DNA of 64,000 nucleotides from an uncultured bacterium (GCA_963845185.1 CAWJRG010000009.1:480001-544000); one strand, 5' to 3'; counted from the stretch's first letter, positions 8,301 through 52,231 are shown. A program made the numbers and translations. The notes: generated from the letters alone by a model not told the origin.

Positions 8301-11300
8301 ACAATAGTTGCACAGGCGACACAGACAGCAGCGGTCCAGCAGACACAAACAGAAGTAGCGAACGAAACAGCTACAGCGATAGTGGTAGCGACGCAAACAG
8401 CTGCGATACAACAGACGCAGACCGAGATAGCAAATGAGACTGCGACAGCGATTGTAGTAGCAACGCAGACAGCTGCGGTACAGCAGACGCAAACAGAAGT
8501 AGCGAATGAGACAGCTACAGCGGCAGTCCAGCAAACACAAACAGAAGTAGCGAATGAGACAGCTACAGCGGCAGCCCAGCAAACACAAACAGAAGTAGCA
8601 AACGAGACCGCAACAGCAATAGTAGTAGCAACGCAGACAGCTGCAGTGCAACAAACGCAGACTGAGATAGCAAACGAGACCGCAACAGCAATAGTAGTAG
8701 CAACACAGACAGCAGCAGTGCAGCAGACGCAGACTGAAATAGCGAATGAGACCGCAACAGCGATAGTAGTAGCAACGCAGACAGCTGCAGTGCAACAGAC
8801 ACAGACTGAAGTAGCAAACGAGACCGCAACAGCAATAGTAGTAGCAACACAGACAGCTGCAGTCCAGCAGACGCAGACTGAAGTAGCGAATGAGACAGCT
8901 ACCGCGATAGTAGTAGCAACACAGACAGCGGCAGTACAGCAGACGCAGACTGAAGTAGCGAATGAGACTTCAACAGCGATAGTAGTAGCAACACAGACAG
9001 CAGCAGTGCAGCAGACACAGACTGAAGTAGCGAATGAGACAGCTACAGCGATAGTAGTAGCAACACAGACAGCGGCAGTCCAGCAGACGCAGACTGAAGT
9101 AGCGAATGAGACTTCAACAGCGATAGTAGTAGCAACACAGACAGCAGCAGTGCAGCAGACACAGACTGAAGTAGCGAATGAGACAGCTACAGCGATAGTA
9201 GTAGCAACACAGACAGCGGCAGTCCAGCAGACGCAAACAGAAGTAGCGAATGAGACAGCTACAGCAGCAGTACAGCAAACGCAGACTGAGGTAGCGAATG
9301 AAACAGCTACAGCAATAGTAGTAGCAACGCAGACAGCAGCAGTCCAGCAAACGCAGACTGAGGTAGCAAACGAGACCGCAACAGCGATAGTAGTAGCGAC
9401 ACAGACAGCTGCAGTCCAACAGACAGAGACTGAAGTAGCGAATGAGACAGCTACAGCGATTGTGCAAGCAACGCAGACAGCTGCAGTCCAGCAGACAGAG
9501 ACTGAAGTAGCAAACGAGACCGCAACAGCAATAGTAGTAGCAACACAGACAGCTGCAGTCCAGCAGACGCAGACTGAAGTAGCGAATGAGACAGCTACAG
9601 CGATAGTAGTAGCAACGCAGACAGCAGCAGTCCAGCAGACAGAGACTGAAGTAGCGAATGAGACAGCTACAGCGATTGTGCAAGCAACACAGACAGCAGC
9701 GGTCCAGCAGACGCAAACCGAAGTAGCTAATGAGACTTCAACAGCGATAGTAGTGGCTACGCAGACAGCAGCAGTCCAGCAGACACAGACCGAGGTAGCC
9801 AACGAGACCGCAACAGCAATAGTAATAGCGACAAATACAGAGATAGCAAATGAGACAGCTACAGCAATCATACAAGGTACACAGACAGCAGTGGTCCAGC
9901 AGACGCAGACAGAGATAGCGAACGAGACAGCTACTGAACAGTCAAATGAAACGGCTACCCAGGCAGCGGCGTCTCCGACTATAACAATGACGGAAACAGT
10001 AACGCTTACAATTACAATAACTCCGACATATACAATAACAGAAACAATAACAGTATCGCCGACCACAACGCAGACAAAGACATACATACAATCCTGCTGG
10101 GACAGCAATACACTGCACCACTGGGATTGTTTTAATACATCAGGCGGCAAGCTTGTTGACGATTTGGCAGGTGCAAACGCGCCTATAACAGGCACGCTGG
10201 CGTTCTCAAATACAATAGTGCCTCCGCACGCGTGGGCAGTTGGAAGCTGCTCGGCGCAGTCAAACGTGAGCAATTATTTCAGCCTGCCGATAAACGACGA
10301 GATGGCAGGCATGACCGCGTTCCAGATAGACTTTGACGTGTACATGCAGGCATCAGCAGACCAGTTCCAGGGATTCTTCTCAAAAGGCACGTATTATGAC
10401 GGGAACAGGTTTGAAAGCGACATGGACACAAGCACAGGTAACTGGAGATACTTCATAACCGGCCAGGGCGGGCAGGTAATGTCAGATGTATGGGACGCGG
10501 GCACGCAGGACAGCACGTGGCACCATGTCATAATAAGCTGGGACGGGACGAACTTCAACGGGTACTGGGACGGGATACATTATATAGTAAACGTGCCGTC
10601 AGGGAACCCGTTCGTTAATGGAGATACCAATACATGGAACTGGGCAATAGCAGACGCGTCATTTGTAGGCGGGAACCTTACATTTAAGGGTTACGTATCA
10701 GAAATAATAATATCAAACAAAGACAGGGGCGGAGTGGCCAATGCGCCGGTATGCGCGTACCCGACATTCACCATGACAAGGACCATAACGCCGAACGTAT
10801 CAGCGACAGCGACGCCTTCTATTACGCTTACACAGACACAGGTAATATCGGCAACACCGACATACACGGCGACAGGGACAGAGACGGAATTTGTGTCTGA
10901 AACGACTACATACACGGCAACCGAATCGCCGATAGCATCTGAAACTCCGACATATACAATAACGCAGACAATCACAGTATCGCCGACCACAACGCAGACA
11001 AAGACCTATATACAATCCTGCTGGGACAGCCATACCCTGCACCACTGGAATTGCTATAATACATCAGGCGGCGCGCTTGTGGACGACATTGCAGGAGCAA
11101 ACGCCACAATAGCAGGCACGCTGGCGTTCTCAAGCGGCATATTGCCGCCGCATTCGTGGGCAGTGGGAAGCTGCTCGGCGCAGTCAAACGTGAATAATTA
11201 TTTCAGCCTGCCTGTAAACGACGAGATGGCAGGCATGACCGCGTTCCAGATAGACTTTGACGTGTACATGCAGGCATCAGCAGACCAGTTCCAGGCATTT

Positions 11301-14300
11301 TTCGCAAAAGGCACGTATTATGACGGGAACAGGTTTGAAAGCGATATTGACACGAGCAGCGGTAACTGGAGATACTTCGTAACATATGAGGGCGGGCAGG
11401 TTACATCCGACGTATGGGACGCTGGCACACAGGACAGCACGTGGCACCATGTCATAATAAGCTGGGACGGCGCGAATTTCAACGGGTACTGGGACGGGAC
11501 ACATTATATAGTAAATGTGCCGTCAGGGAACCCGTTCGTGACAGGGGATACTACGCTATGGAAGTGGGCAACAGGAGACGCGTCTTTTGTGGGCGGGAAC
11601 CTGGCATTTAACGGCTACATATCAGAAATAACAATATCAAATATAGACAGGAATGGAGCGGCTAACGTGCCGATATGCACGTACCCGACATGGACATATA
11701 CGCAGACAGTAACACCTACATACACAATAACTTCAACAGTGACATCGACAGTAACGAGCACGGTAACAGTGACAAGCACACCCATACTGTCGCTGATTGT
11801 AAATGTTGATTCAGACGAAGACGGCATGCCGGGAAGCGTAACTCCGGGAGACAATACTTTAAGGCAGTGCATAAACGAAGCAAACATCCTTGCCGGGCCC
11901 ATAACAATAACCTTTGACCCAATTATAGCGAACACGACAATAAACATCGGGTCTGATTTGCCGGTTATCTACAACACAAACATTACACTGACTATTGACG
12001 GAGGCAGCAGCGGCATTGTCGTAAACGGCAACAGCAACAGGATATTCAGCATAATCTCAAGCAACAATATAATAGATAACCTTGCAATAGTAGGCGGATA
12101 CTGGGGCGTGTTGATAAGCGGCCAGTCAGGCGCAACCGGAAACATGATATTCGGCTGCAATATCGGCGTTGACTGGAAAAATAATGCCGTGGCAAACCAG
12201 TACGGAGTTGTGCTGGAAAACGGCGCCAGTGAAAACTATATAGGCATGAACAGCGGCTCGGGAATAGCATACGGCAATATTATATCCGGCAACACATACG
12301 ACGGAGTGTATATTGACGGCTCCAGCAATAACTGGGTTGTAAATAACTTCATAGGCACGGATTCTACAGGCATGACAGCCATTCCAAACGGGTATGACGG
12401 AGTGCACCTTGCTGACAGCGCGTACAACAATACAGTCGGATATTATGACCAAACACTCGGGAATATGGGCAACGTAATATCAGGGAACATGGACGACGGA
12501 ATTTATATTGAGAACGGCTCTGAAAATACCGGGGTGTTCGCGAATGTCATAGGCGGAAACGCAGGCGTACTGGTAGGGAACAGCGCCACGGCAGGACAGC
12601 TGGCAAACGGGTATAACGGAGTTGAAATCAGCCAGGTGGACGCCGAAGGCGACGGCGCTGATTACACAGGCATAGGAAATTATAACCCGGACACCGGGCT
12701 GTACGACCAGCCGGGCAACACGATAATGGCCAATACCAGCACAGGCATATATATTTCAAATTATTCGTCAATGGTTTTTGCAGGAAGCAACTCGATAGGC
12801 GTAATTTTCGGAAACACGGCAGCAGGCAACGGCTCGGCCGGAATAGCAATCGACAGCAACGCTTATGATAACTACATACAGTCAAACCTGATAAGCGGGC
12901 AGGGCAATACTGGCGCAGTCGGTATCGGGATTAGCGGCACAAACGGCTACATATACCAGAATATCATAGGGCTCGACTCGTCAATGAGCACAGAGGTGCC
13001 GAATTTTGCAGGTATATACCTTAACGGCGCGAGTTATGTGCAGATAGGCCAGCAGGGCAACGCGGCGTCGGCAAATATAATATCAGGCAACACGACACAG
13101 GGCATTTTACTTGACAACGGGACGGTTTACACCGGGATATACGGCAATTACATAGGTACGGATTCAAATTATGACAATTTCGGCAATGCGCAGGAAGGCA
13201 TAGCAATAATAAACGGCTCGTCCAACAACCAGATAGGCGGCGGCCTGGGCTCGGGCGACGAGAACTATATACTGGACAACCTTACGGGCGGAGTAATTAT
13301 AGGCGCAAGCCCGCTGGACACCGCGGCAGTTGGCAATATGGTGGACTCGAATTATATCTCGAATAATAACGGCCTTGGCATAGACCTTGGCAACGACGGC
13401 ATAACGGTAAACGGCAGCGAACCTGCATCCGGGCCAAATAACTTTGTATATTACCCGGCAATCAACAACGCGCAGATGACAGGACCTGCAACCCTGCATG
13501 TTGACGGCGACACGAATATCACGGACGGCTCGGATATAGGAGTCATCATAGGCATATCAGACAATGACGGCCAGCAGGGCCACGGCGAGTGCATGCATCC
13601 TATTGCATATGTGGACATGACGGCCAATGGAGGCGGAGGGGCGTTCAGCGCTGACATAGACACGAGCGCGATCGGCGATTTATCAGGCCTGACGATTACA
13701 AGCTACAACATTAACAACAGCGGCTCGTCTGAATTCTCGGCAAACGCGGTAGTGCTGGCAATACAGCCGAGCGCAACGAGCACAATAACTGAAACACTTA
13801 CGCCGACTCTGACCATAACAATAACATTAACATCAACATCTACAGAAATAGACACGTCAACCAATACGCCGGTGAACACGGCTACAGCTACGCCTACAGA
13901 GTATGATTCGGCGACAATGACAGTAACAATGACAGCGACATCAACGGAAATAGACACGTCAACCAACACGCCGGTTAATACGGCAACAGCTACGCTGACC
14001 GAGTTTGATTCAGCCACGGTTACATATACAATGACATCGACATCAACCGAAATAGACACGTCAACCAACACGCCGGTTGACACAGCAACAGCTACTCCTA
14101 CAGAGTATGATTCGGCGACAATGACAGTAACAGAGACATGCACCATTGGCGCGACGCCAATGGTGCCTGCAGGCCTGTCAGTGACACAAAGCGGCGCGAA
14201 CACCACGCTCCAGTGGGGCACTGCAGGAGACGCGGTTTCATATAATATTTATATTGCCACAGGCGCAGCTGGCAAGTTCAACACGTTCCCTGGCGCAGGA

Positions 14301-15071
14301 TGGACGCTGCTGGCAAATGTGGCGCCGACAGCAGGGACAACGTCATATACCTACGCGGACGCGTCAGGCAATACATATATATTCTACCTTGTGACAGCGC
14401 AAAACAGCGCAGGCGAGGGCAAGCCTTCGGCCATGGGCGCGAAAGTAATAATGCAGTTTAATTATGTGGCAGGCACGACAAACACATACAGGGTATCGCT
14501 GCCGTATGTCTCCAAGTACACAAAGGCATCGGACATAGTGACTGACATAGAGGGGTCATTAAGCACAGACGCAAAAATCAACAGGATTGCGTTATGGGAT
14601 CATATTAACCAGGTATATAACCCGTACTCATATAAAATGGGCACATGGATAGGGACAAACTGGGCAGTTGACGCAGGCACGCCGTCATCCAACGCGTTTG
14701 CCGCGTACACCATGTCAAGTTTCGCATGGACAGTGGCAGGGACAGACACAAGCGCAGGGCTTGGGTTCACGTACAATGGCGCCATGACCAACGGCAATGT
14801 AAGGATGCTGCCGTACACAGGGATTTACACCAAGGCCTCGGACATAGTGACTGACATTGAAGGCGGCACAGGGCCGGGGACAAACACAAAAATCAACAGG
14901 ATAGCGGTATGGGACAGCGTAAACCAGATTTATGTGCCGTATTCATACAAGGCGTCAATGAACGGATGGGTCGGGACAGATTCGCAGATACTGCCGGGCA
15001 TGGCAGTGGACATATATTTAAGCGGGAACACAGGGGTATTTACATGGACCCCGAAAATGGTAACACCATAA
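3..15071 (+). CDS. Giant repetitive surface protein/adhesin, 5'-partial (>5000 aa in window): octad repeat blocks, two parallel beta-helix regions, two LamG-like domains, FN3-like domain, duplicated C-terminal domain
   Basis: The frame of the 858..15071 ORF is open back to position 3 (ACT TCA ACA GCG ATA GTA...), so the ATG at 858 is internal. Beta-helix regions begin IVNVD.D.DG.PGSVTPG.NTLRQCINEAN (~5356, ~11794) and are rich in GN.IG/ISGN. Two near-identical domains carry WHHVIISWDG..FNGYWDG (~10080, ~11005). Confidence 0.85.
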   Translation, partial: TSTAIVVATQTAAVQQTQTEVANETATAAVQQTQTEVANETATAIVVATQTAAVQQTQTEVANETATAIVVATQTAAVQQTQTEVANETATAIVVATQTAAVQQTQTEVAQETATAAVQQTQTEVANETATAIVVATQTAAVQQTQTEVANETATAIEVATQTAAVQQTQTEVANETATAIVVATQTAAVQQTQTEVANETATAIVVATQTAAVQQTQTEVANETATAIVVATQTAAVQQTQTEVANETATAIVVATQTAAVQQTQTEIANETATAIVVATQTAAMQQTQTEIANETATAIVVETSTAAVQQTQTEVANETSTAIVVATQTAAVQQTQTEVANETATAIVVATQTAAVQQTQTEVAQETATAAVQQTQTEIANETATAIVVATQTAAVQQTQTEVANETATAIEVATQTAAVQQTQTEVANETATAIVVATQTAAVQQTQTEIANETATAIVVATQTAAVQQTQTEVANETATAIVVATQTAAVQQTQTEVANETATAIVVATQTAAVQQTQTEVANETATAIVVATQTAAVQQTQTEVANETATAIVVETSTAAVQQTQTEVANETSTAIVVATQTAAVQQTQTEVANETATAIVVATQTAAVQQTQTEVANETATAIVVATQTAAVQQTQTEVANETATAIVVATQTAAVQQTQTEVANETATAIVVATQTAAVQQTQTEIANETATAIVVATQTAAVQQTQTEVANETATAAVQQTQTEVANETATAIVVATQTAAVQQTQTEVANETATAIVVATQTAAIQQTETEVANETATAIVVATQTAAVQQTQTEVANETATAIVVATQTAAVQQTQTEVANETATAIVVATQTAAVQQTQTEVANETATAIVVETQTAAVQQTQTEIANETATAIVVATQTAAVQQTQTEVANETATAIVVETSTAAVQQTQTEVANETATAIVVATQTAAVQQTQTEVANETATAIVVATQTAAVQQTQTEVANETATAIVVATQTAAVQQTQTEIANETATAIVVETSTAAVQQTQTEVANETATAIVVETQTAAVQQTQTEIANETATAIVVATQTAAIQQTETEVANETATAIVVETSTAAVQQTQTEIANETATAIVVETQTAAVQQTQTEVANETATAIVVATQTAAVQQTQTEVANETATAIVVATQTAAVQQTQTEVANETATAIVVETSTAAVQQTQTEVANETATAIVVATQTAAIQQTQTEIANETATAIVVATQTAAVQQTQTEVANETATAAVQQTQTEVANETATAIVVATQTAAIQQTETEVANETATAIVVATQTAAIQQTETEVANETATAIVVATQTAAVQQTQTEVANETATAIVVETQTAAVQQTQTEVANETATAIVVETSTAAVQQTQTEIANETATAIVVETSTAAVQQTQTEIANETATAIVVATQTAAVQQTQTEVANETATAIVVETSTAAVQQTQTEIANETATAIVVETSTAAVQQTQTEVANETATAIVVATQTAAVQQTQTEIANETATAIVVATQTAAIQQTETEVANETATAIVVATQTAAVQQTQTEIANETATAIVVATQTAAVQQTQTEIANETATAIVVETSTAAVQQTQTEIANETATAIVVETQTAAVQQTQTEVANETATAIVVETSTAAVQQTQTEVANETATAIVVETQTAAVQQTQTEIANETATAIVVATQTAAVQQTETEVANETATAIVVETSTAAVQQTQTEIANETATAIVVATQTAAVQQTQTEIANETATAIVVATQTAAVQQTQTELVQETQTAIIQATQTAIVQATQTALAGPLIVNVDADDDGLPGSVTPGANTLRQCINEANTRTGPVSISFDTIIAGTTITLTTGDLPLISNANITLTIDGGNNNITINGNGNNIFNITSNNNVIYNLAMINGIQGVLISGTGAYSNIISECRIGVDWNNNAGANTNGVVINNGADENQIGMYVLGMAYGNIISNNTNDGVLIDGANVNWVLNNFIGTDPTGMSPMPNGANGVHLTNGAFNNTIGYYDPSTGNMGNLISGNGYDGILIENGAEDTGVFTNIIGGNVGVSTENIGSAGTLPNGYNGIEISGVDAEDDGADYTGIGNYDPDTMAYDQPGNTIVANANSGIYATNNSSWVYTGGNSIGVMFGNMAAGNVQAGISIDSNSYDNYINSNLISGQSSENAVGIEINSSTGCNIYSNIIGLDAPASVPVPNFEGIYLLNASNVQVGQQGNTAAANIIAANMTQGILFDGGSSNGIYGNYIGTDLYLDSGLGNSEGIAFIDGTTNNEVGGGVGSGDENYILYNTVKGIQIGSSASDIGTMFNYINSNYISGNNGLGIDLGNDSITVNGSETPPGPNNWTYYPTIANAYMSGPNTLHIDGDTNITDGNNMGVVIGISDNDGQLGSDNMNHGESPQPLAYVAVTGGTFSVDIDTSAFGDLSGMAITSYNIHNNGSSEFSANMTILSAPVATQTEVANETATAIVQATQTAVVQATQTAVVAGTQTAVVVATQTEVANETATAIIQATQTAAVQQTQTEVANETATAIVVATQTAAIQQTQTEIANETATAIVVATQTAAVQQTQTEVANETATAAVQQTQTEVANETATAIVVATQTAAVQQTQTEVANETATAIVVATQTAAVQQTQTEIANETSTIVAQATQTAAVQQTQTEVANETATAIVVATQTAAIQQTQTEIANETATAIVVATQTAAVQQTQTEVANETATAAVQQTQTEVANETATAIVVATQTAAVQQTQTEVANETATAIVVATQTAAVQQTQTEIANETSTIVAQATQTAAVQQTQTEVANETATAIVVATQTAAIQQTQTEIANETATAIVVATQTAAVQQTQTEVANETATAAVQQTQTEVANETATAAAQQTQTEVANETATAIVVATQTAAVQQTQTEIANETATAIVVATQTAAVQQTQTEIANETATAIVVATQTAAVQQTQTEVANETATAIVVATQTAAVQQTQTEVANETATAIVVATQTAAVQQTQTEVANETSTAIVVATQTAAVQQTQTEVANETATAIVVATQTAAVQQTQTEVANETSTAIVVATQTAAVQQTQTEVANETATAIVVATQTAAVQQTQTEVANETATAAVQQTQTEVANETATAIVVATQTAAVQQTQTEVANETATAIVVATQTAAVQQTETEVANETATAIVQATQTAAVQQTETEVANETATAIVVATQTAAVQQTQTEVANETATAIVVATQTAAVQQTETEVANETATAIVQATQTAAVQQTQTEVANETSTAIVVATQTAAVQQTQTEVANETATAIVIATNTEIANETATAIIQGTQTAVVQQTQTEIANETATEQSNETATQAAASPTITMTETVTLTITITPTYTITETITVSPTTTQTKTYIQSCWDSNTLHHWDCFNTSGGKLVDDLAGANAPITGTLAFSNTIVPPHAWAVGSCSAQSNVSNYFSLPINDEMAGMTAFQIDFDVYMQASADQFQGFFSKGTYYDGNRFESDMDTSTGNWRYFITGQGGQVMSDVWDAGTQDSTWHHVIISWDGTNFNGYWDGIHYIVNVPSGNPFVNGDTNTWNWAIADASFVGGNLTFKGYVSEIIISNKDRGGVANAPVCAYPTFTMTRTITPNVSATATPSITLTQTQVISATPTYTATGTETEFVSETTTYTATESPIASETPTYTITQTITVSPTTTQTKTYIQSCWDSHTLHHWNCYNTSGGALVDDIAGANATIAGTLAFSSGILPPHSWAVGSCSAQSNVNNYFSLPVNDEMAGMTAFQIDFDVYMQASADQFQAFFAKGTYYDGNRFESDIDTSSGNWRYFVTYEGGQVTSDVWDAGTQDSTWHHVIISWDGANFNGYWDGTHYIVNVPSGNPFVTGDTTLWKWATGDASFVGGNLAFNGYISEITISNIDRNGAANVPICTYPTWTYTQTVTPTYTITSTVTSTVTSTVTVTSTPILSLIVNVDSDEDGMPGSVTPGDNTLRQCINEANILAGPITITFDPIIANTTINIGSDLPVIYNTNITLTIDGGSSGIVVNGNSNRIFSIISSNNIIDNLAIVGGYWGVLISGQSGATGNMIFGCNIGVDWKNNAVANQYGVVLENGASENYIGMNSGSGIAYGNIISGNTYDGVYIDGSSNNWVVNNFIGTDSTGMTAIPNGYDGVHLADSAYNNTVGYYDQTLGNMGNVISGNMDDGIYIENGSENTGVFANVIGGNAGVLVGNSATAGQLANGYNGVEISQVDAEGDGADYTGIGNYNPDTGLYDQPGNTIMANTSTGIYISNYSSMVFAGSNSIGVIFGNTAAGNGSAGIAIDSNAYDNYIQSNLISGQGNTGAVGIGISGTNGYIYQNIIGLDSSMSTEVPNFAGIYLNGASYVQIGQQGNAASANIISGNTTQGILLDNGTVYTGIYGNYIGTDSNYDNFGNAQEGIAIINGSSNNQIGGGLGSGDENYILDNLTGGVIIGASPLDTAAVGNMVDSNYISNNNGLGIDLGNDGITVNGSEPASGPNNFVYYPAINNAQMTGPATLHVDGDTNITDGSDIGVIIGISDNDGQQGHGECMHPIAYVDMTANGGGGAFSADIDTSAIGDLSGLTITSYNINNSGSSEFSANAVVLAIQPSATSTITETLTPTLTITITLTSTSTEIDTSTNTPVNTATATPTEYDSATMTVTMTATSTEIDTSTNTPVNTATATLTEFDSATVTYTMTSTSTEIDTSTNTPVDTATATPTEYDSATMTVTETCTIGATPMVPAGLSVTQSGANTTLQWGTAGDAVSYNIYIATGAAGKFNTFPGAGWTLLANVAPTAGTTSYTYADASGNTYIFYLVTAQNSAGEGKPSAMGAKVIMQFNYVAGTTNTYRVSLPYVSKYTKASDIVTDIEGSLSTDAKINRIALWDHINQVYNPYSYKMGTWIGTNWAVDAGTPSSNAFAAYTMSSFAWTVAGTDTSAGLGFTYNGAMTNGNVRMLPYTGIYTKASDIVTDIEGGTGPGTNTKINRIAVWDSVNQIYVPYSYKASMNGWVGTDSQILPGMAVDIYLSGNTGVFTWTPKMVTP
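7328..9965 (+). repeat. Coding tandem repeat block 2, same octad family, containing a 408-bp higher-order repeat
   Basis: AACGAAACAGCTACAGCGATAGTGGTAGCGACGCAA recurs at 7545, 7953 and 8361. Confidence 0.93.
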
Positions 15072-23806: not shown

Positions 23807-23834
23807 TTGACAACACTGAAAAATATGATATATT
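23807..23834 (+). promoter_or_regulatory. Putative sigma70 promoter of the hox operon
   Basis: TTGACA-16 bp-TATATT with extended -10 TG. Confidence 0.5.
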
Positions 23835-23890
23835 TTTCGTAATTTATTATAAAAAACCGCGACTATATAATTGTTTTTTTATATAATTTC

Positions 23891-23908
23891 TTGTGAGAAT
23901 ATTCACGA
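23891..23908. promoter_or_regulatory. Rex-like (or CRP/FNR-like) operator upstream of hoxF
   Basis: TTGTGAGAATATTCACGA versus Rex consensus TTGTGAANNNNTTCACAA (2 mismatches). Confidence 0.55.
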
Positions 23909-23910
23909 AC

Positions 23911-24104
23911 ATACCGCTTGTAATCGGCTGCAGCCGATGACTTGAGCGGGTATAAGAGCCCGTAATGTTTTGTCTGCGCTGGAAGCTTGACAAAATGTAC
24001 ACCTCTTGTCCTCAGCCTGAAGGCTTCGGACTGGAGCGGGTGTAAGTCGATGTAATTTTCGGCTGCACCCTGCGGGTTTGTCTCAAAAACATCGACTTAG
24101 GAGG
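23911..24104 (+). ncRNA. Tandem pair of an unassigned two-hairpin structured element in the hoxF leader (copies A1, A2)
   Basis: CCNCTTRT-stem-AYTKGARCGGG hairpin followed by a GTAAT..TTTTGYC/GRCAAAA hairpin; ends at GGAGG. Confidence 0.55.
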
Positions 24105-24112
24105 ACATTAAA

Positions 24113-25954
24113 ATGCCTAAAAAATCCGCTAAAAAAAGACCGGCAAAAAAATCTGCCGCACCATTTAAATCAAACAAGGTTTCCGCAATAATAAAAAAGT
24201 ACAATTTTGACCCGTCGCGCCTGATGGACATACTCCTCGACGTCCAGGCACAGCAGGGCTGCGTCAGTGAAGCTTCCATAAAAGAAATCGCAGCTGCAAC
24301 AGGTATCCCGATGGCAGATGTAAATCAGACCGCGAGCTTTTATCATTTTTTTTCCAAAAAGCCGTGGGGTAAATATACAATTTACCTCAACGACAGCCTG
24401 GTTTCCTGCTTTAAGGGTTTTGAGGAAGTAAAAGAAGCTTTTGAAAGGGCAACGGGCGTAAAATTCGGCAATGTCACAAAGGACGGCCTTATAGGCCTGT
24501 TCCTGACTGCGGATACCGGCATGAACGACCAGGAGCCGGCAGCGCTTATAAACGGCCAGGTTTTTACAAAACTTACGCCTGACAAAGCAAGGGCGATTAT
24601 CGCCGGTATATGCGAAGGCAAAACTGCCGAGGAATTAAAGGCGGCAAAATACGGAGACGGCAAAAATTCACACCCGCTTTTGAAATCAATGGTGCAAAAC
24701 AACCTGCTGCAAAAAGGCGAGGTTATTTTTTCGGATTACAAGCCGGGCGATGCAGTCAGGAAGATGGCAGCAATGAGCTCGACCGATGTAATAAATACAA
24801 TTAAAAATTCAGGATTGCGCGGCAGGGGCGGCGCGGGCTTCCCGACGGGATTGAAATGGGAATTATGCAGGAAAAACCAGGCGCCGAAGCATTTTATACT
24901 CTGCAACGCCGACGAGGGCGAACCGGGCACGTTTAAGGACAGGGTAATACTGACCGAGCTGCCCATGCTTGTATTTGAGGGCATAACAGTCGCGGGTTAC
25001 GCTATAGGCGCGGAACTCGGCATACTTTACCTGAGAAACGAATACATGTACATGAAGGATTATTTAAACAGCGCGCTTGAAGATATGAGAAAACAAGGCC
25101 TGCTCGGCAGCTCGATAGCAGGCAGGAAAGGCTTTAATTTTGACATAAGGATACAGTTCGGCGCGGGCGCGTATGTCTGCGGCGAGGAATCCGCACTTAT
25201 AGAATCAGCCGAGGGTAAAAGAGGGGAGCCGAGGGACAGGCCGCCTTTCCCCGTTGACAACGGATACCTGGGCATGCCTACGGCGGTAAATAACGTCGAG
25301 ACGCTGTCCGCGGCAGCGAAAATAATATCAAAAGGCGCGGAATGGTTCTCAAGCATGGGCACAAAAGACTCAAAAGGGACAAAAGTTTTAAGCGTATCAG
25401 GGGACTGCGCAAACCCCGGTGTCTATGAGGTTGTTTTCGGCACAAAAATAAAGGACATCATTAAAATGGCAGGCGCCGAAGACATCCAGGCAATACAGGT
25501 AGGCGGGCCGTCAGGAACATGCATAGCCCCTGAAAGTTTTGAAAGGGCAATTGCTTTTGAGGACATGCCTACGGGCGGAGCTTTGATAGTTATTGGAAAC
25601 AAAAGGTCGCTTTTAAAAGAAGTGGTGTTGAATTACCTTGAATTTTTTATAGAAGAATCATGCGGTTCCTGCGTGCCGTGCAGGGCAATGACCGTGATGT
25701 ACAAAAAGTCCGTGGAAAAGCTTCTCCGCGGATATGCAACGAAGGCGGACATTGACGCCATGCTTTCGTGGGAAGCAGTGATGAAAAAAAACAGGTGCGG
25801 CCTTGGCCAGACAGCCATGAACCCGGCTGTGACAACAATAAAAAATTTCAGGAAACTATATGACAGCATGATAAAAATTACAGACGACAGCATAAAGCCG
25901 TCATTTGATGAAGAGGCAGCTGTGAAAGATTATAATGAAGCGGTAAAAATATAA
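24113..25954 (+). CDS. hoxF: NAD-reducing hydrogenase diaphorase large subunit (NuoE-like plus NuoF-like)
   Basis: SGLRGRGGAGFPTGLKW, CNADEGEPGTFKDR, GAGAYVCGEESAL, ESCGSCVPCR, CGLGQT. Confidence 0.9.
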   Translation: MPKKSAKKRPAKKSAAPFKSNKVSAIIKKYNFDPSRLMDILLDVQAQQGCVSEASIKEIAAATGIPMADVNQTASFYHFFSKKPWGKYTIYLNDSLVSCFKGFEEVKEAFERATGVKFGNVTKDGLIGLFLTADTGMNDQEPAALINGQVFTKLTPDKARAIIAGICEGKTAEELKAAKYGDGKNSHPLLKSMVQNNLLQKGEVIFSDYKPGDAVRKMAAMSSTDVINTIKNSGLRGRGGAGFPTGLKWELCRKNQAPKHFILCNADEGEPGTFKDRVILTELPMLVFEGITVAGYAIGAELGILYLRNEYMYMKDYLNSALEDMRKQGLLGSSIAGRKGFNFDIRIQFGAGAYVCGEESALIESAEGKRGEPRDRPPFPVDNGYLGMPTAVNNVETLSAAAKIISKGAEWFSSMGTKDSKGTKVLSVSGDCANPGVYEVVFGTKIKDIIKMAGAEDIQAIQVGGPSGTCIAPESFERAIAFEDMPTGGALIVIGNKRSLLKEVVLNYLEFFIEESCGSCVPCRAMTVMYKKSVEKLLRGYATKADIDAMLSWEAVMKKNRCGLGQTAMNPAVTTIKNFRKLYDSMIKITDDSIKPSFDEEAAVKDYNEAVKI

Positions 25955-25982: not shown

Positions 25983-26675
25983 ATGGCAGCGATAGTCAGG
26001 TTCAAAATAGACGGAAAGGAATGCATGACCGAGGAAGGGAAATTCCTCGTGGAAGCCGCGAAAGACAACGGCGTTTACATACCCACGCTTTGCAACTATG
26101 AGGGCGTGAAGCCCCAGGGCTCGTGCAGGATATGCAATGTGCTCATTAACGGCAGGCCTGCCACTGCATGCACTACAAAGGTAACCGAAGGCATTGACGT
26201 GCAGAACATAACACCGGAACTCGAGGAGTTCAGGAAAACCGTTATTGAGCTTTTATTTGCCGAAGGCAACCACCTTTGCCCGTCATGCGAAAAAAGCGGG
26301 ACCTGCGAGCTGCAGGCGCTCGGATACAGGTACAGAATGATGGTGCCGAGGTTCCCTTACCTTTACCCGTCCAGGGAAATAGAGGCATGGCACCCGAAGC
26401 TCATGAAAGACCACAATAGGTGCATTCAGTGCAAAAGGTGCATAAGGGGCATAAGCAGTAAAGACGGCAAGAATATATTCGCGTTCGCTAAACGCGGGGA
26501 GGAAGTAATAATAGCCATCGACACTGAGACGTCGGCAAATATGAGCGATGAACTGGCGCAGAAAGCAATGGATATATGCCCGGTAGGCGCGATACTCAGG
26601 AAAAGAAAAGGATTTGACGTGCCGATCGGAAAAAGAAAATACGATTCTGCGCCCATCGGGAGCGATGTAAAATAA
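25983..26675 (+). CDS. hoxU: NAD-reducing hydrogenase diaphorase small subunit
   Basis: IPTLC...GSCRIC...AC, HLCPSCEKSGTCELQ, RCIQCKRC, ICPVGAI. Confidence 0.9.
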   Translation: MAAIVRFKIDGKECMTEEGKFLVEAAKDNGVYIPTLCNYEGVKPQGSCRICNVLINGRPATACTTKVTEGIDVQNITPELEEFRKTVIELLFAEGNHLCPSCEKSGTCELQALGYRYRMMVPRFPYLYPSREIEAWHPKLMKDHNRCIQCKRCIRGISSKDGKNIFAFAKRGEEVIIAIDTETSANMSDELAQKAMDICPVGAILRKRKGFDVPIGKRKYDSAPIGSDVK

Positions 26676-26737
26676 CGTTAATCGTTGATTGTTGACCGTT
26701 GTTCATATATTGAAAAAAACCAGAAACTGAAAATAAC

Positions 26738-26844
26738 GCACCGCTTATCCCCGGCTAAAGCCTTGGATTTGAGCGGGTGCTAAGATTCCGTAAGACTTTG
26801 CCTTTGCTGCTGACGCCGGGCAAAATCAACGGAACCTAAGGAGG
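26738..26844 (+). ncRNA. Two-hairpin structured element, copy B, directly upstream of the hoxY RBS
   Basis: GCACCGCTTATCC...GGATTTGAGCGGGTGC, then TTCCGT...TTTGCC...GGCAAA...ACGGAA, then AAGGAGG. Confidence 0.5.
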
Positions 26845-26849
26845 AATAA

Positions 26850-27463: not shown

Positions 27464-28915
27464 ATGGGTAAAAAGATAACAATTGAACCTGTTACAAGAG
27501 TTGAAGGCCACGGCAAGGTCACAATAAACCTTGATGACCAGGGTAATGTAAGCCAGACAAGGCTGCATGTGGTCGAATTCAGGGGTTTTGAGCGCTTTGT
27601 ACAGGGCAGGCCTTACTGGGAGGCTCCGGTACTCGTGCAGAGGCTGTGCGGGATATGCCCGGTAAGCCATCATTTAGCAGCGGCAAAGGCAATGGATGTG
27701 GTAGTCGGGGCAGGCACAGGAAACGGACTTACGCCTGTTGCTGAAAAGATGAGAAGGTTGATGCATTACGGACAGATGTTCCAGTCGCACTCGCTCCATT
27801 TTTTCCATCTTGCTTCGCCTGATTTACTTTTCGGCTATGACTCTGACCCGGTAAAAAGGAACGTCATTGGCGTCGCGATGGCGAACAAGGAGCTTGCAGT
27901 GCAGGCTGTTTTTATGAGGAAATTCGGGCAGGAAATAATAGCTGCCACAGCCGGGAAAAAGATACACGGCACTGGAGCTGTGCCCGGAGGAATAAACAAG
28001 AATTTAAGCACTGAAGAAAGGGATAAGTTTTTAAAAGGCAAGGACCCGCTTAACGCTGACAAGATGATAGAGTGGGCGCAGGGCGCGCTTGCGTTTTTTA
28101 AGGATTATTACAAAAAGAACAAGGATTTTATTGATAACTTTTCGCAGTTCCCGTCAAACCATCTGTCTCTTGTAAAAAAAGACGGCGGTCTTGACCTATA
28201 TCACGGCGTTTTAAGGGCCGTGGACGCAAACGGCAAGAAAATATTCGATAAAGTTGACTGCCAGGATTACCTTAAATACATAAGGGAGGAAGTAAAATCA
28301 TGGAGCTACATGAAATTCCCTTATATTAAACAGCTCGGGCCGGAAAAAGGCTGGTACAGGGTGGGCCCATTGGCAAGGCTGAATACTGCTGATTACATAC
28401 CTACACCGCTCGCACAGAAGGAATTTGAGGCGTATAAAGCTGTAACAAAAGGCAAACCTAACTATATGTGCATGCATACTCATTGGGCCAGGCTAATTGA
28501 AACCCTGCATTCGGCGGAAATGATAAAAAAACTGTTACAGGACCCGGACTTGCAGAAGGAAAATCTTGTCAAGACAGGCAAGAGGCAGAAAGAGGGCGTA
28601 GGGATAATCGAAGCGCCGAGAGGCACTCTTTTTCACCACTATGCGGTTGACGCCAATGACCAGATAACAATGTCAAACCTTATAGTGTCGACCACAAACA
28701 ACAACGAGTCCATGAACAGGTCCGTGAATTATATCGCAAAAGCCATGATGACAAAGAAACCTCAGATAACCGAAGGCATGATGAACGCGGTTGAGGTAGG
28801 CATCAGGGCATATGACCCATGCCTGTCGTGCGCCACGCACGCATACGGCGAAATGCCGCTTGAGATAACACTGAGAGACGCGAAAGGCAAAGTGATTGAA
28901 AAGAAATACAAATAA
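27464..28915 (+). CDS. hoxH: [NiFe]-hydrogenase large subunit (group 3d type)
   Basis: TRVEGHG, RLCGICPVSH (L1), EAPRGTL, DPCLSCATH (L2) followed by a cleavable C-terminal extension. Confidence 0.93.
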   Translation: MGKKITIEPVTRVEGHGKVTINLDDQGNVSQTRLHVVEFRGFERFVQGRPYWEAPVLVQRLCGICPVSHHLAAAKAMDVVVGAGTGNGLTPVAEKMRRLMHYGQMFQSHSLHFFHLASPDLLFGYDSDPVKRNVIGVAMANKELAVQAVFMRKFGQEIIAATAGKKIHGTGAVPGGINKNLSTEERDKFLKGKDPLNADKMIEWAQGALAFFKDYYKKNKDFIDNFSQFPSNHLSLVKKDGGLDLYHGVLRAVDANGKKIFDKVDCQDYLKYIREEVKSWSYMKFPYIKQLGPEKGWYRVGPLARLNTADYIPTPLAQKEFEAYKAVTKGKPNYMCMHTHWARLIETLHSAEMIKKLLQDPDLQKENLVKTGKRQKEGVGIIEAPRGTLFHHYAVDANDQITMSNLIVSTTNNNESMNRSVNYIAKAMMTKKPQITEGMMNAVEVGIRAYDPCLSCATHAYGEMPLEITLRDAKGKVIEKKYK

Positions 28916-33852: not shown

Positions 33853-36800
33853 ATGAAAAAAATTTCAAGAGGGGTTTTTGTTTCATTATTTTTCAAAACT
33901 GCAATATATTCTATAATATCAATATTTTTTCTTTCCCTAAGCAGCTCGATATACGCAAATTATTCCTCAATCACCGGAGTTACTATCAACCCGCCGAACC
34001 CAGCGCTGGGGCAGCCGTTTAATCTCAGTATTCAGATGTGCCTTGACGAATATAACACTCCGAATGAACTTGTTGTGGCCGCAAGCACAAGCAGTGCTTT
34101 CCAGAATCCCGGCATAAACGGGCAGGTATTTTTATTGAGCAGTTTGGGTGTTGACGTCCACAGTTCAAACCCGAACAACGCAAGCAATGGATATGTTGAT
34201 TTCGGCTGCCATCTCACCCAGCCGACGCCGTTTGTCACGAACTGCACGGATTGCGCTGGATCATACGCCATGTCTGTCACCGAATCATATAACCTTACCA
34301 TGCCCAGTGCTGCTGAGCTCGGAAGCCAGTGCGGCGGCGCATCGACCATATATCTGCAGATCGGATCATATAGTTTTTATTTTTACAACACCACCTGGAC
34401 GTCACTTTACAACGGTGCCTGCGGCGCGTATGAAACAAGCTGGGCGTTGCCTGCGCCGCCTGCAAATTCAATAACATTAAGCCAGAGGGCGGAAGGCGAA
34501 CTGCAGTCTGTCGGAGACCTGGTCTTATATTCCATCGATTATTCTTACGGCAACGGGCCGTTGACGATCACGGACAGCCTGCCGGGAAGCGGCAACCTGT
34601 CGCTTGCGACCTACGGGCCTTTGTCTATTACAGGCGGCACGATCACGGCACCGGCCTTAGGCTCGACATCCGGCACGATCACATGGAATTTCCCGAATTC
34701 GACAACCACGAAGCAGGGAACAGTCTGGCTGCTGATGAAAATGACCACTGCAATATCCGCAGGCACCCAGGTGCAGAATACCGCAAGCGCGGCAAGCGGC
34801 TCAAACAATATGAATTCATCGGCAATTGTCACTGCCGGACAGCCTGCCGTATCGGTGCAGAAATTTGAAAGCGCAAGCGCCTTGACGGCCATGGCCGGGA
34901 ACTCAGCGACGATAACATATTACCTTAATTACGAGGTAAACGGCGACCAGATGAAAGCTTTCAGGGCTTTTGACGATACTGCACTCGGCGCGTACACTTC
35001 ATTGCCGCCTTCGGGCTGGAAATTCATCCCGTCAGGCGCTGATAACGGTACGTGGACAATATCCGATTTCTGCGGTACAGGGGACAGGGTGCTTTGGGGC
35101 GCAGCGCAGACAAATTCTTACCCGGCCCTTTTGCTTGACGACCCGGCGCCTTCAAACGTACAGATATGCACAGGATTAGTTGAGGCCGATGTCCTTATTA
35201 ACCCGGGCTCAGACCCCGGGGCGGACGGGCTTGTGATATTGAGGAGCAACGGTTTGACAGGCAATTTAAATTATTCTTATTCATTGCTTTTATCACTGGA
35301 TACGGCGCCTGCAAACGGATATATATCGATACAAAAATGCTCGGCAGGGACATGCTCGTGGTACGCACCTGAGACTACATTTCCCATCACGGGGAATACC
35401 TGGTACAGGACAAAGACAAATATGACTGTAAGCGGGAATGATTATGTATTCCAGTATAAAATATGGCAGGTTGGCCAGCCTGAACCGTCCGGATACCTTG
35501 GAATATGGACAGACTCGGGCGCAGCGGCTAACGCGAGCTTTAATTGCTCGGGAACAGGGACATACCTGGACTGGAGGCCCGGGGTGGGCGAGCAGTCCGG
35601 TGTTTACGGGAACGAAAATGACGAATATAATAACTTTATTGCTTACGCTCCCAGGACGGCTGCAAACGCGGCATTATTCGACACGGTACCTGCAGGATTA
35701 ACGTATATTTCATCAAGCCCAATCGGCACAAATTCAGCCGGCTTTTTAACATGGAACCTCGGCAATATAAGCTACCAGAGCGGAACATACACCTGGTGGG
35801 CGTCCACGAACGCCTGCGGCCAGAGCTTTACAAACGTTGCAGGTATAGGCGGCACGGGCATGGCGCCGCAATTTTCAAACCCTGTTGTGTCCGGCCTGAA
35901 CTGCATATCGCCCACAATCACATTAACTACGCCGCCATCCAGCACGCCTTCAGTTACATATACGATTTCGCCAACAACCACAAACATACTGACAAAGACA
36001 GCAACAATGACATATACACCGGTTAATACAGCTGTGAATACAGCTACAATTACAGTAACATTTACAACAACACCAACGGCAGCTTCGCCAACATTCACAA
36101 ATATACCGACAAAAACAGTAACAATGACCGCGATTAATACGGCAGTTGTTACTGCGACAGTGACATCAACGCAGATACCGCCCGGCTCGACGATGACAAG
36201 CACGCCGACAGTATCGCCGACAATAGCTATAAACCTGTCTGCAAGTTTAACGGTATCACCGGCAAGCGCGGCAGCAGGACAGGGCATAACAGTGATAATG
36301 CAGGTAGTCAATACAGGGACTAACACCGCAAACAATGTGCAACCGTCTTCTTTAATACAGACAGGAGGAGGGGTTGCTGCTTTTTTAAGCGGGCCAAGCC
36401 CTGCAAGCGCAACAATAGCCGGAGGATTTTCGGCATCATTCACATGGGTATATAACGTAACCATTTGCGGCAATATTACATTCAGCTGCACGGCAAGCGG
36501 TACCGATGCCGTAGACGGGGTAAGCACGACAAGCATGTCGGCGTCGAGCAATACATTCACGTGCGCGACAGCGACAGCGACATATACACAGGTACCGCCG
36601 GGCTCGACACTGACAGCAACAAGAACTGTGACACCGATAGACTCGCTGACATCAATTGTAACCGCATCATTCACGCCTACAATACCGCTATGCCTGGTTG
36701 ATACACTTTCAAATTGCAACAGCACCAATGTGTGGGGCGGTCAGTGGTATACATATAACGACAGCAGCTACGGCGGGACATCGGTTGTGTGGCCGGGAGC

Positions 36801-39800
36801 AGGAAGTACATTTATAATGAGTTCGCCCGGTTTTGACGGCGGGTCGGACTGCGCGGCGCAGATGACAGGTGTTGTAACGACAGCCTACCCCGGCGGGTTT
36901 ATTGGCATGGATTCCCAGTTAAACGCAAACGCGGGATCTCCTACATACCAGGAGACGAATATCAGCGGTGCTACAGGAGTAATGTTCTGGTGCAAAGGGG
37001 ACGGGAAAAACTATACCATAAAGATACCTTATACAAGCAATACCGGAAGCTCATTGACCGGTAATGATGATTATTCATATAGTTTTTATGTATTCGCGTC
37101 TTCCTGGACGCAGATAGGCATACCTTTCTCGGGAGGGTACTTCAAACAGGCGGGAACGGGCACAGCAGTGCCGTTTGCGACGGTATTACAGCATGCGAAA
37201 GACATACAATTCCAGACCAGCGGCCAGCCGCAATCCAGCGTGGACCTGTGGATAGACGACCTGCAGCTGTACGGCGGGTGCTCGATGCCCACATCGACAA
37301 GCACGCCGACGCCGACACGAACCACGATATTGACCAGGACCGTATCGCCTACGCCCACAGTAACATATACGTATATTCCAATATTTTCACCGACGCCGAC
37401 AATTACGCCAACATTTACATGCACCGCTACACCGGCAAGCCTGTGCTCGGTGGACACTATGGCAAGCTGCAGTAACGTCAATGTTTGGGGTGGGGCATGG
37501 TTCACCTATAACGATGCAAACGACGGAGGCACTTCGGTTGTATGGCCGGCTCAGGGACAGACTTTTATAATGAGCTCTCCGGGGTACAGCGGCGGAGCTG
37601 ACTGCGCCGCGCAGATGACGGGCGTGGTTACCATAGCTTACCAGTATGGTTTTATAGGCATGGGCACCTTATTAAATCCGAATGCAGGCGCGCCGAATTA
37701 CCAGTCCACTGACTTAAGCGGAGCATTGGGAGTCAGTTTTTATACCAGAGGCGATGGGAACGTCTATACGATAATAATTACGTACCTTAACAGCAGCGGC
37801 AACACAATGACCAACTGGGACGATTATGCATACACTTTTGTCGCGTTCTCAGGATGGTCGCAGTACACTATACCTTTCACCGCGTTTACGCAACCGTATT
37901 ACACTCCATCACAATACCAGGTACCGCTGGTTACAGTATTGCAAAACGCCAAACAATTCCAGTTCGCGACAACAACCCAGCCTCTTGCCGGCGTCGACCT
38001 TTGGATAGACAACCTTTCGGTATACGGGTGCATAATACCTGCGTTTACTCCTACGATAACAACAACATTAACTTCAGTCCCGTCGGGTTCAACCATGACA
38101 AATACGCCGACTATTACTTTGACTTCGACGATTACACCGACTTACACTATGACCCCAACTGTCAACCCGAATACAGTATGCTATAGCCTGCAGTGGGGCA
38201 CCCCGGGGACAGGCATCGGCCAGTTTGATTACCCTTACGGTGTAGCTGTGGACGCGAGCGGTTATGTATATGTCGCCGACCTCTACAATAACAGGGTGGA
38301 AAAATTCACACCTGCAGGCGCCTATGTCACCCAATGGGGAAGCAGCGGCAGCGGAAACGGGCAGTTCTCATACCCTGTGTCCATAGCAATTGACGCCGGC
38401 GGTTATGTTTATGTGACCGACTGGAACAACAGCAGGGTGGAAAAATTCACGTCAACAGGGACGTATGTAACCCAATGGGGGAGTTACGGCACAGGGGCAG
38501 GGCAGTTTGAATACCCATACGGTATTGCCGTGGACAGCAGCGGTTACTTATATGTTACTGATGCGGAAAACAGCAGGGTGGAAAAATTTACATCAACAGG
38601 AGCATATGTGACACAATGGGGAACTAATGGGTCCGGCAACAGCCAGTTTAATTATCCGGCGGGAATAGCCGTTGACAGCAGCGGCTATGTTTATGTGGCG
38701 GATTCTTATAATTACAGGATACAAAAATTCACTTCAACAGGGACTTATGTCACCCAGTGGGGAAGCAACGGCAGCGGCAACAGCCAGTTTGATTATCCTT
38801 TCGGTATTACAATAGGCGGGAACGGTTTTGTATATGTGGCCGATACCTATAACAACAGGGTGCAGGCATTCACGTCAACAGGCACATACATAACGCAGTG
38901 GGGCAGCTATGGCACGGGAAACGGGCAGTTTAACGGGCCTGTGGGTATTGTGACAGACAGCACAGGAGCAATATACGTATCGGATTATAACAATAACAGG
39001 GTACAAAAATTTATTGCCTGCGTGCAACTGACAGCAACGCCGACCAATACGGGCCTGATAGCCTCGGCTACGTATACGCCTACGTACACGGTTACGGCCA
39101 CGTCAACCAGGACAAGCACCCAGGTCCCTTCAGGCTCGACCATGACAAGCACTCCGACAATGACCCCGACAATAGGCATAAATCTGGTAGCGGGCCTTAT
39201 TGTATCGCCAAACGTTGTGGCAATAGGCCAGGATGTCACGGTATTAATGGAAGTAGTTAATGTTGGCACTGATACCGCAAACAGCGTAAAAGCGTCACCG
39301 CTTTTCCAGACAGGAGGAGGAGCTGCGGTGCTTGTAAGCTCCCCGAATCCGTCCAGCACGAATATAGGGCCGGGTTCCTATACAATATTCACGTGGGTTT
39401 ACAGCATGGCAATATGCGGAGATATAGTATTCAACGGGACAGCGAGCGGGACCGACGCTGCAGACGGCGTGAGCATGACAAGCCCACAATGTTCGAGCAA
39501 TACTCTTTCATGTTCTTCCGGAGCCCCGACTGCCACAAGTACAATGTATGTAGCGCCGGGTTCGACATATACAATTACGCCTACGCTCACGCCGACATTC
39601 ACGATGATACCGTCAGGCTCCACTTTAACAGTTACACCGGTGGTGACACCCACAATAGGCATTAACCTTGTTGCAGGACTGACTGTTTCGCCTGCCAGCG
39701 CGGGGGTGGACCAGGATATTACAGTAATAATGCAGGTGGTGAATATAGGGACAAACACCGCGGATAATGTCGTGCCGTCATCGCTTATGCAGGCTGGAGG

Positions 39801-47552: not shown

Positions 47553-47886
47553 ATAAATTGATAGAAACATTAGATTATATTGAAGAAGACTTAAAGATTC
47601 CCGGAAAGGAAATAATATTAGATAAAAATATTATGTCACCGCGTCATCATTAATTATTAAAGTTGATGAAATACCTAAATATAAAAGTAAATATGCAAAA
47701 TTAGCGAATATGATTTATAAAATATTTAAAAGACGCAATTTAACATTGCCTCAATCATTATTAAATTGGAAAATTAAAATACAGGAAGATACTTTGCCTG
47801 AAGTAAGACGGCAATGGGAAGAATAAATAAGTTTTAAAATATATAATAATTACTTGCATTTACTGTAAGAGGAGAGTTTTATCATA

Positions 47887-50857: not shown

Positions 50858-50889
50858 ACGGATTGGCAAAGTAAACAATATAATATCAA

Positions 50890-50984: not shown

Positions 50985-50992
50985 TATAAATA

Positions 50993-52202: not shown

Positions 52203-52231
52203 TAGAAAATTTAAGGGGAGGTTTTACCATG

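Follow-up and report, generated by a model that had tools for sequence, protein, structure and literature searches.

A structured module of about 100 nucleotides (nt), which we examined in a 64,000-nt stretch of DNA from an uncultured bacterium (GCA_963845185.1 CAWJRG010000009.1:480001-544000, the window; source genome labelled G000), belongs to a dispersed family whose members lie directly against the Shine-Dalgarno (SD) sequences of many unrelated genes. The reading that we favour, with a confidence about evenly balanced between right and wrong, is that of a portable structured leader, derived from a family of small RNAs and set before the ribosome-binding sites (RBSs) of about a hundred unrelated genes, which acts constitutively and has no gene-specific ligand. 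A preliminary description, made from the window alone, had taken the copies in the leader of a hydrogenase operon and elsewhere for a new cis-regulatory RNA, and that reading is partly supported. If the favoured reading is true, about 3% of the genes of one lineage share one structured 5' leader whose domain is free-standing in relatives, and the module is a natural portable leader cassette abutting the RBS, as synthetic biologists construct deliberately. It would also be a tractable system for the genomic spread of a structured RNA domain and for the effect of such a domain on mRNA stability and translation.

Genome-wide family and structure of the module

A strict regular expression matched 108 sites in the source genome (3.50 Mb in 11 contigs, 99.4% complete), and a profile built from these matches found 181, of which 138 were near full length and 135 distinct, spread over at least seven contigs. 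Directly 3' of 92 of the 181 profile matches we found an SD sequence, a start codon and an open reading frame (ORF) of at least 50 amino acids. The remaining matches were followed by another copy (21), truncated at the 3' end (18), followed by a terminator-like hairpin (2) or placed in a residual class (48), several members of which, when inspected by eye, had an SD sequence with a short ORF or an SD sequence after a nested insert. The 3' end of most copies lay 0-3 nt from the SD sequence of the downstream gene, and the distance to the start codon peaked at 11-16 nt for full-length, co-oriented, intergenic copies. At tandem junctions the similarity between copies stopped before the SD sequence, so the unit excludes it. 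The alternative entertained in the preliminary description, a mobile structured repeat carrying an RBS, was nearer the truth in so far as the module is a dispersed RBS-associated repeat.

The window genes are all on the + strand, and the common orientation of the copies inside it was therefore uninformative and called for a genome-wide test. On a crude ORF map, the next downstream gene was co-oriented for 160 of the 181 profile matches. Gene-strand bias in this genome is very strong (2322 leading versus 476 lagging among 2798 crude genes), and 17 of the 181 matches were in the lagging orientation; by regular expression, 12 of these 17 had an SD sequence and a start codon directly 3', and orientation thus tracks the gene, not replication. 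The co-orientation that had been claimed from the window thus holds across the genome, even on the lagging strand, and the random orientation that would have suggested a REP or MITE element was not found. The local GC skew, recorded separately, was about +/-0.1 and switched sign near C9:750 kb and C10:790 kb.

Twenty-five of the 92 SD-linked copies started at most 60 nt from the end of a co-oriented upstream gene, and the module thus occupies intercistronic sites in addition to promoter-proximal leaders. Fourteen tandem runs of two to seven units were present in the genome. One head-to-tail array of seven units with a 100-nt period, at G000:C9:916520-917176 (-), occupies the intergenic region that precedes an ORF of about 1100 codons.

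The downstream genes were sampled by taking every second gene from a list of 93 associated genes and scanning 39 with Pfam. These 39 were functionally unrelated, and nine had no Pfam match. Their products included LysA-like (diaminopimelate-decarboxylase-like) and NuoL-like proteins, MurC, GatC, ArgG, a carbamoyltransferase, MetK and ribosomal protein L3, together with HPF, PhoU, HisG, MetG, AtpA, peptidases, TPR proteins and lipoprotein-like proteins. Enrichment for exported products was sought and not found, neither for signal peptides (30 of 93 against a background of 841 of 2692, p 0.82) nor for lipoboxes (11 of 93 against 196 of 2692, p 0.11).

The module is composed of two dissimilar hairpins. 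In hairpin 1 a 5-bp outer stem leads through a fixed imperfect region to a variable inner stem-loop, and hairpin 2 has an outer stem of 8-10 bp, an internal loop of the UAA/AA type, an A/U-rich stem of 8-9 bp and a small variable tip. From an alignment of 86 copies of the source genome a structure of 27 pairs was written by hand, comprising outer and inner stems of 5 and 4 bp in hairpin 1 and of 9 and 9 bp in hairpin 2. Standard pairs occupied 88.4% of the cells compared with 73.4% in shuffled alignments, none of 500 shuffles reaching the observed value, and 340 cells were changed on both sides compared with 113 in shuffles; when the partners were slid by 1-3 columns, 31-41% of cells were paired. 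Both controls are generous, because the sequences are kin and the structure was drawn from the same sequences. Three to four pair types were found at most positions of the outer hairpin-2 stem. The two hairpins, covarying stems and fixed unpaired bases proposed from the window copies were thus confirmed, and the covariation did not vanish in the larger alignment.

Single-sequence folds of two window sequences, the copy between hoxU and hoxY and the tandem leader of hoxF, gave the same two hairpins with the SD sequence unpaired after the last helix, and no conserved alternative helix was seen in these two folds. The 5' strand of hairpin 1 was considered as an anti-SD sequence and rejected, its key base varying between G, A and T without a matching change in the SD sequence. 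The unpaired bases of hairpin 1 were nearly invariant across the bacterial order to which the genome belongs, with covarying stems. Bases that are not partners were also associated in hairpin 1 (e.g. window 24004-24040), CTT occurring with GA-purine and CTC with GA-pyrimidine. The counts for CTT/CTC against GA-purine/pyrimidine were 69/3/1/6 in this genome, 16/3/0/11 in relatives and 28/0/0/2 in metagenome copies, and either combination leaves the hairpin-1 helix with exactly one weak spot.

Rfam 15 returned no match at gathering score over the whole 64-kb window, only matches with E>1 in a permissive scan (E up to 10) of positions 23850-24150, and only microRNA and small-RNA matches far below gathering score at six loci from relatives. 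The preliminary description, which named no matching riboswitch or ribozyme, was correct in this respect. Comparison of the aligned motif with the kink-turn, the 11-nt tetraloop receptor, the UAA/GAN loop and the IS110 bridge RNA revealed no sufficient fit, and the loops of the hairpin ribozyme gave no convincing match. The UAA-opposite-AA internal loop of hairpin 2 is receptor-like, yet hairpin 1 has no conserved GNRA loop. The module could be imagined as a processing signal, self-cleaving or targeted by a nuclease, at which a cut gives every downstream cistron a structured 5' terminus and by which the free-standing RNAs are matured. Its placement between cistrons (the 25 SD-linked copies above, including the hoxU-hoxY spacer), its tandem arrays and its two adjacent helix-loop-helix domains with fixed loop bases are compatible with such a role, but no Rfam ribozyme matched the hox leader even at E up to 10, and we regard this explanation as very unlikely.

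Free-standing copies, turnover and mobility

The taxonomic range of the module was assessed with a covariance model (R1) in 41 genomes, namely this genome, 23 others of the same order and 17 from other orders of the phylum. R1 gave at least 92 scored matches in this genome and 1-17 in each of 11 same-order genomes (0-17 across all 23), and none in the 17 genomes from other orders. A loose-pattern scan of contigs yielded at least 115 stretches, and among the 80 tested a single R1 match was found, in a record matching the same-order genome G020. Among the genomes searched, the family was found in one bacterial order only.

In the relatives the module takes a different form. By a fold-based rule, a terminator-like hairpin with a T-tail, usually after an A-run, followed the element at 16 of 28 sites, whereas an SD sequence, a start codon and an ORF followed at one (in G001), and the next ORF was convergent at 20 of 26 sites. 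An orthologous free-standing locus was identified in four genomes from two genera (G014, G023, G020 and G019), with a common terminator and flank and with one or two units, and its outer hairpin-2 stem existed in four different, fully compensated versions. In G014 and G020 it is flanked by a divergent gene upstream and a convergent one downstream, and in G023 and G019 by a short same-strand ORF upstream. Thirty-five distinct copies from relatives, when placed on the model structure, were paired in 91.4% of cells compared with 68.9% in shuffles, with 202 versus 57 double-change cells, although this alignment had been fitted to the model, which biases the comparison towards the structure. Stem mismatches in the free-standing copies were G:U in 34 cells and A:C in 8, the asymmetry expected of sense-strand RNA. 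No convincing promoter was recognised upstream of these copies, one locus (L116) carried an array of three units, and the neighbouring genes (TPR, RadC, ABC permease, GT2 and others) were unrelated and included no candidate partner protein. Judged by the terminators, the convergent neighbours and the compensatory changes, the free-standing copies behave as a small structured RNA gene would. Several of them also had short tandem repeats of 5-17 nt directly upstream (L090:1-78, L085:1411-1440 and the upstream flanks of L107 and L109), one of them comprising four repeats of a 17-nt unit.

A riboswitch responding to a global signal, such as an alarmone, an ion or temperature, and having as its expression platform the terminator in relatives but the SD-adjacent helix in this genome, would account for the conservation of a structured domain whose unpaired bases are fixed, for tandem copies and for the succession of a terminator in some genomes and an SD sequence in others, as in riboswitch classes. 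The convergent gene beyond the terminator at 20 of the 26 sites, however, leaves nothing downstream to regulate. Moreover, the SD sequence was free and no conserved alternative pairing emerged in the two window folds, the sole anti-SD-like stretch occupied a variable position, and about 140-180 copies, among them arrays of near-identical units, stand before unrelated housekeeping genes and are lost or gained among close relatives. We therefore give this explanation hardly any credence.

Orthologous genes of close relatives do differ in the presence of copies. A strict-pattern scan of metagenomes recovered 28 loci, from which three sharing the record set of G014 were excluded; the other 25 contained 30 R1 matches, had flanks with 80-92% nucleotide identity to this genome and were SD-linked at 16 sites. 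Eight element-bearing metagenome genes had a homologue in the source genome (at least 77% amino-acid identity), and the element was upstream of that homologue in five cases and absent in three. At a miaB-like gene (L266 compared with G000 C10), the one site with a conserved promoter to anchor the comparison, the promoter-to-start interval was wholly different, about 165 nt with the module and a strong SD sequence in the relative versus 22 nt with a weak SD sequence in the source genome; the difference reaches almost to the start codon, which indicates replacement and no clean insertion. The hairpin-2 type differed between orthologues at three shared sites, and orthologous sites with two units versus one were also found (L038/L039 versus L245; G000:C9:686407-686602 versus L258). 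Hairpin-1 and hairpin-2 types were nearly independent of each other (mutual information 0.42 versus 0.33 in shuffles, p 0.07; also p 0.17), but linkage between the two hairpin-2 stems was tight (1.33 versus 0.42 in shuffles, p<0.0005). Identity to the nearest neighbour had a median of 0.88, and 13 of 138 copies had a neighbour at 95% or above; by this measure the copies are old, not young.

A non-autonomous DNA transposon of the MITE, REP or PATE type, whose hairpins would serve transposition as single-stranded DNA and have no RNA function, would explain several of these observations, with adjacency to the RBS reflecting target choice or the survival of tolerated insertions. The burst of copies in one lineage (at least 92 matches here versus 0-17 in relatives), the variable presence at orthologous genes, the tandem runs, the lack of a G:U over A:C excess in leader copies and the nesting of a two-hairpin mini-element of about 70 nt inside module copies are all in its favour. 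Against it, no gene for a Y1 HUH transposase (PF01797) or for TnpB (PF07282) was matched in the source genome, in searches that were positive in 6 and 8 of 14 control genomes, respectively, and neither terminal inverted repeats nor target duplications were seen by eye at the copy ends in alignments of 86 and 71 copies. The copies, old and diverged as they are, retain 88% of their pairs, their orientation tracks genes even on the lagging strand, and compensation across two genera together with the 34:8 wobble excess at free-standing copies is an RNA signature. A transposon of this type thus seems improbable, if somewhat less so than the processing signal or the riboswitch.

Other mobile DNA is present in the genome. 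The mini-element of about 70 nt has 23 copies (G000:C9:19296 (+), C5:322267 (-), C10:372021 (-) and others), none in the window, and is often nested in the module, where it occupies the hairpin-2 tip, the inner arm of hairpin 1 or the interval separating hairpin 2 from the SD sequence; nesting at several module positions indicates that small mobile DNA is active in this genome. A third short insert breaks hairpin 2 at C9:916520 and C5:198998. Six RVT_1 matches with identical scores, in ORFs of 472-566 codons (C9:700695, 811636 and 845477; C10:383780 and 832145; C11:62007), are probably copies of one multi-copy retroelement. Four of seven IS110-type genes had identical scores, and none adjoined a module copy among the five IS110 loci compared with the profile-match coordinates.

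In the constitutive-leader reading, the family would have originated as a structured RNA domain, still carried by relatives as a small free-standing RNA, which in this lineage multiplied to about 140-180 copies and came to be placed against the RBSs of about a hundred unrelated genes. There the module would be transcribed within the mRNA and act in cis as a constitutive structural leader, and its stable helix just 5' of the SD sequence would guard the 5' end and insulate the RBS from the sequence upstream. The copies would have been spread, kept and reshuffled through duplication and recombination between copies, with no dedicated transposase evident; we infer recombination from the almost independent assortment of the hairpins, the hairpin-2 swaps at orthologous sites and the tandem runs.

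Several observations weigh against this account. Transcription, 5' ends and effects on stability or translation are, for the leader copies, inferred only. Recombination alone does not explain the exact juxtaposition with the SD sequence, and six identical RVT_1 ORFs, seven IS110-type and nine rve-type transposases in the genome are possible helpers. The association of CTT or CTC with its non-partner purine or pyrimidine suggests recognition by some partner, which a passive insulator would not need. Lastly, stem mismatches in leader copies, counted as cells and not as events, were G:U in 57 and A:C in 82 in this genome and 17 and 35, respectively, in close relatives; much of the A:C excess comes from one pair of hairpin 2 and the two outermost pairs of hairpin 1, and the ratio is near 1 without them. 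With no wobble preference, selection on individual leader copies as sense-strand RNA is not demonstrated.

The main rival to a constitutive leader is a post-transcriptional network in which a protein acting in trans, or the ribosome, reads the fixed loop bases, the leaders being controlled and the free-standing copies and arrays serving as decoys in the manner of CsrA/CsrB. Nearly invariant loop bases within covarying stems across the order, the non-partner association found in three sequence sets, the strict SD-adjacent position and orientation, the terminator-ended free-standing copies and the arrays of three units in relatives and seven here are what such a network would produce. No candidate protein was found, however, and the neighbours of free-standing copies are unrelated; the downstream genes share no function, leader copies are gained and lost among close relatives without wobble preference, which fits weak constraint on each copy, and the hox operons of relatives work without the module. 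We consider a network of this sort possible but doubtful. It would amount to a global post-transcriptional system of a new kind, wiring more than 90 mRNAs (for core metabolism, the ribosome, ATP synthase and Hox) through an SD-adjacent domain, a proposition that we hold equally tentatively. The DNA-transposon, processing or ribozyme, and global-riboswitch explanations are less likely than the trans-acting network.

Copies in the window and at the hydrogenase operon

A search of the window with R1, run with filters off, recovered all six copies flagged in the preliminary description (23911, 23998, 26738, 48157, 50890 and 52502), all on the + strand as stated there, and a weak seventh that it had missed. 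The copies and the features of the hydrogenase operon are, in window coordinates:

23807-23834, +, promoter-like site (TTGACA, 16 nt, TATATT with TG), 11/12 consensus matches; a consensus match only
23906-23988, +, copy 1, hairpin 1 and inner hairpin 2; R1 32.7 bits, E 5.2e-6
23994-24106, +, copy 2, full length; R1 92.7 bits
24113-25954, +, hoxF-like diaphorase subunit; Pfam Complex1_51K, 2Fe-2S_thioredx, NADH_4Fe-4S
25983-26675, +, hoxU-like iron-sulfur subunit; Pfam Fer2_4, NADH-G_4Fe-4S_3, Fer4_Nqo3
26733-26846, +, copy 3, between cistrons hoxU and hoxY; R1 97.6 bits
26850-27401, +, hoxY-like small subunit; Pfam Oxidored_q6
27464-28915, +, hoxH-like NiFe large subunit; Pfam NiFeSe_Hases
48152-48260, +, copy 4, within a 430-bp segmental repeat; found with R1
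50885-50987, +, copy 5, between a methyltransferase gene and a HAD-hydrolase gene (ATG 50993); found with R1
52497-52604, +, copy 6, within the second copy of the 430-bp segmental repeat; found with R1
52693-52780, +, seventh copy, compact and divergent, just 5' of a truncated DarT-like ORF; R1 37 bits, E 4.8e-7

The operon has the order hoxF, hoxU, copy 3, hoxY and hoxH, all four gene names being backed by Pfam. The promoter-like site implies that the tandem copies lie in the 5' untranslated region of hoxF. A head-to-tail pair is present there, as had been described, with copy 2 directly 3' of copy 1, but in copy 1 the outer stem of hairpin 2 has no 3' arm, and its score is lower (32.7 versus 92.7 bits). 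The claim that the 3' arm of hairpin 2 runs up to the SD sequence was accurate at both sites: in copy 2 it stops just 5' of GGAGG at 24100-24104, followed by the hoxF ATG at 24113, and copy 3 is followed by GGAGG at 26840-26844 and the hoxY ATG at 26850.

Orthologues of HoxF with 60-65% identity were found in nine genomes of the same order. With filters off, R1 gave three matches in the hox locus of the source genome and none in the nine orthologous hoxF loci, one of which had just 39 nt of upstream sequence and the other eight at least about 300 nt. In G014 and G003 the hoxF leader combines a conserved promoter-like block with a plain leader of about 100 nt, and no relative emerged when metagenome contigs were searched with HoxF. 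The hox copies were acquired specifically in this lineage. The same module stands before about 92 other genes and is absent from the nine hoxF loci, and it is thus not a hydrogenase-specific sensor; the translational control linked to hydrogenase, redox, cofactor or metal status that had been proposed for it does not survive this comparison. Judged by the coherence of downstream function, the module does not qualify as a riboswitch, the 39 sampled genes being unrelated and the nine hoxF orthologues having no copy. In annotation, the leader of the hydrogenase operon ought therefore not to be labelled as a riboswitch for redox state or nickel.

Copies 4 and 6 do not count as independent, because both lie inside the 430-bp segmental repeat (47866-48297 versus 52212-52641, 94.9% identity). 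A third copy of the repeat is present on the same contig at G000:C9:918496-918923 (-), the three being 89-95% identical, and the repeat carries the module copy and a short ORF, with a GC-rich hairpin 5' of the module. Copy 4 is followed by an SD-like AAGGGA and an ORF of 39 codons with no Pfam match. A sigma-54 promoter (GG-N10-GC) considered in copies 4 and 6 was rejected, the GG being absent from the remaining copies.

Several neighbouring features were also recorded. The DarT-like ORF (52778-52951, 58 codons) matches the DarT profile over its first 43 positions only (E 2e-5), after which the frame breaks, and an AbiEi/AbiEii pair lies 3' of it (53277-54149 and 54154-54987). With the segmental repeats and an AAA_14/DUF4143 ATPase at 48521-49921, these genes give the stretch the look of a defence or toxin-antitoxin islet. 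The window further contains two giant ORFs on the + strand, at 858-15071 (4737 codons) and 33853-40311 (2152 codons).

Comparison with known systems

In Csr/Rsm systems, many mRNAs carry a short structured motif adjacent to the SD sequence, and free-standing RNAs carry one or several copies of it. The module likewise occurs both in SD-adjacent leaders and as free-standing copies, a likeness of logic only. It differs from them in having no conserved GGA loop (the base varies between G and T) and no identified partner protein, and in being a 100-nt domain of two hairpins, not a short hairpin.

With the ends of IS200/IS605 elements, PATEs and REP/RAYT systems the module shares the form of small multi-copy elements made of imperfect hairpins. 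Unlike them it has dissimilar hairpins, no accompanying Y1 or TnpB gene and an orientation that tracks genes and not replication; with no PF01797 or PF07282 match in a genome that is 99.4% complete, it was not assigned to the IS200/IS605 PATE or REP/RAYT elements. Neither was it assigned to MITEs, its ends not being mutually inverted and no flanking duplication being visible by eye among the 86 and 71 aligned copies. An integron attC array was likewise set aside, the copies being distributed over at least seven contigs before rplC-, atpA- and metK-like genes, although no integrase search was made.

BOX, ERIC/IRU and Correia repeats are found in either orientation and at no set distance from genes, the Correia elements having terminal inverted repeats. 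The module, by contrast, is co-oriented with the next gene at 160 of 181 sites, and its 3' end lies 0-3 nt from the SD sequence. These repeats are otherwise modular, structured, multi-copy and intergenic, are co-transcribed with their neighbours and have shuffled modules (in part after the general account in PMC3184786).

We found no description of the module in the literature searched, which included accounts, available in part, of repeats upstream of SD sites, and it is absent from Rfam 15. The REP2 repeats (CREN) of Neisseria and the IR-A/IR-B repeats of a Borrelia plasmid are described as dispersed repeats, 120-180 bp long, that lack terminal inverted repeats, have two internal stem-loops and lie directly upstream of unrelated ORFs, supplying or abutting their RBS (PMC3184786). 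REP2 has its own promoter, RBS and ATG and about 26 copies (PMC3184786). Like REP2/CREN as described there, the module adjoins the RBS of unrelated ORFs (92 of 181) and has two hairpins, here supported by covariation. It differs in having no promoter, RBS or ATG of its own (at hox, the promoter-like site precedes copy 1 by about 70 nt and so falls outside the unit), in being 5-7 times more numerous, in its strongly covarying stems and in its free-standing, terminator-ended relatives. The module is REP2-like in placement and probably not a member of the REP2 family. As far as these partial accounts extend, the REP2 and Borrelia IR repeats are the nearest described analogue of the module.

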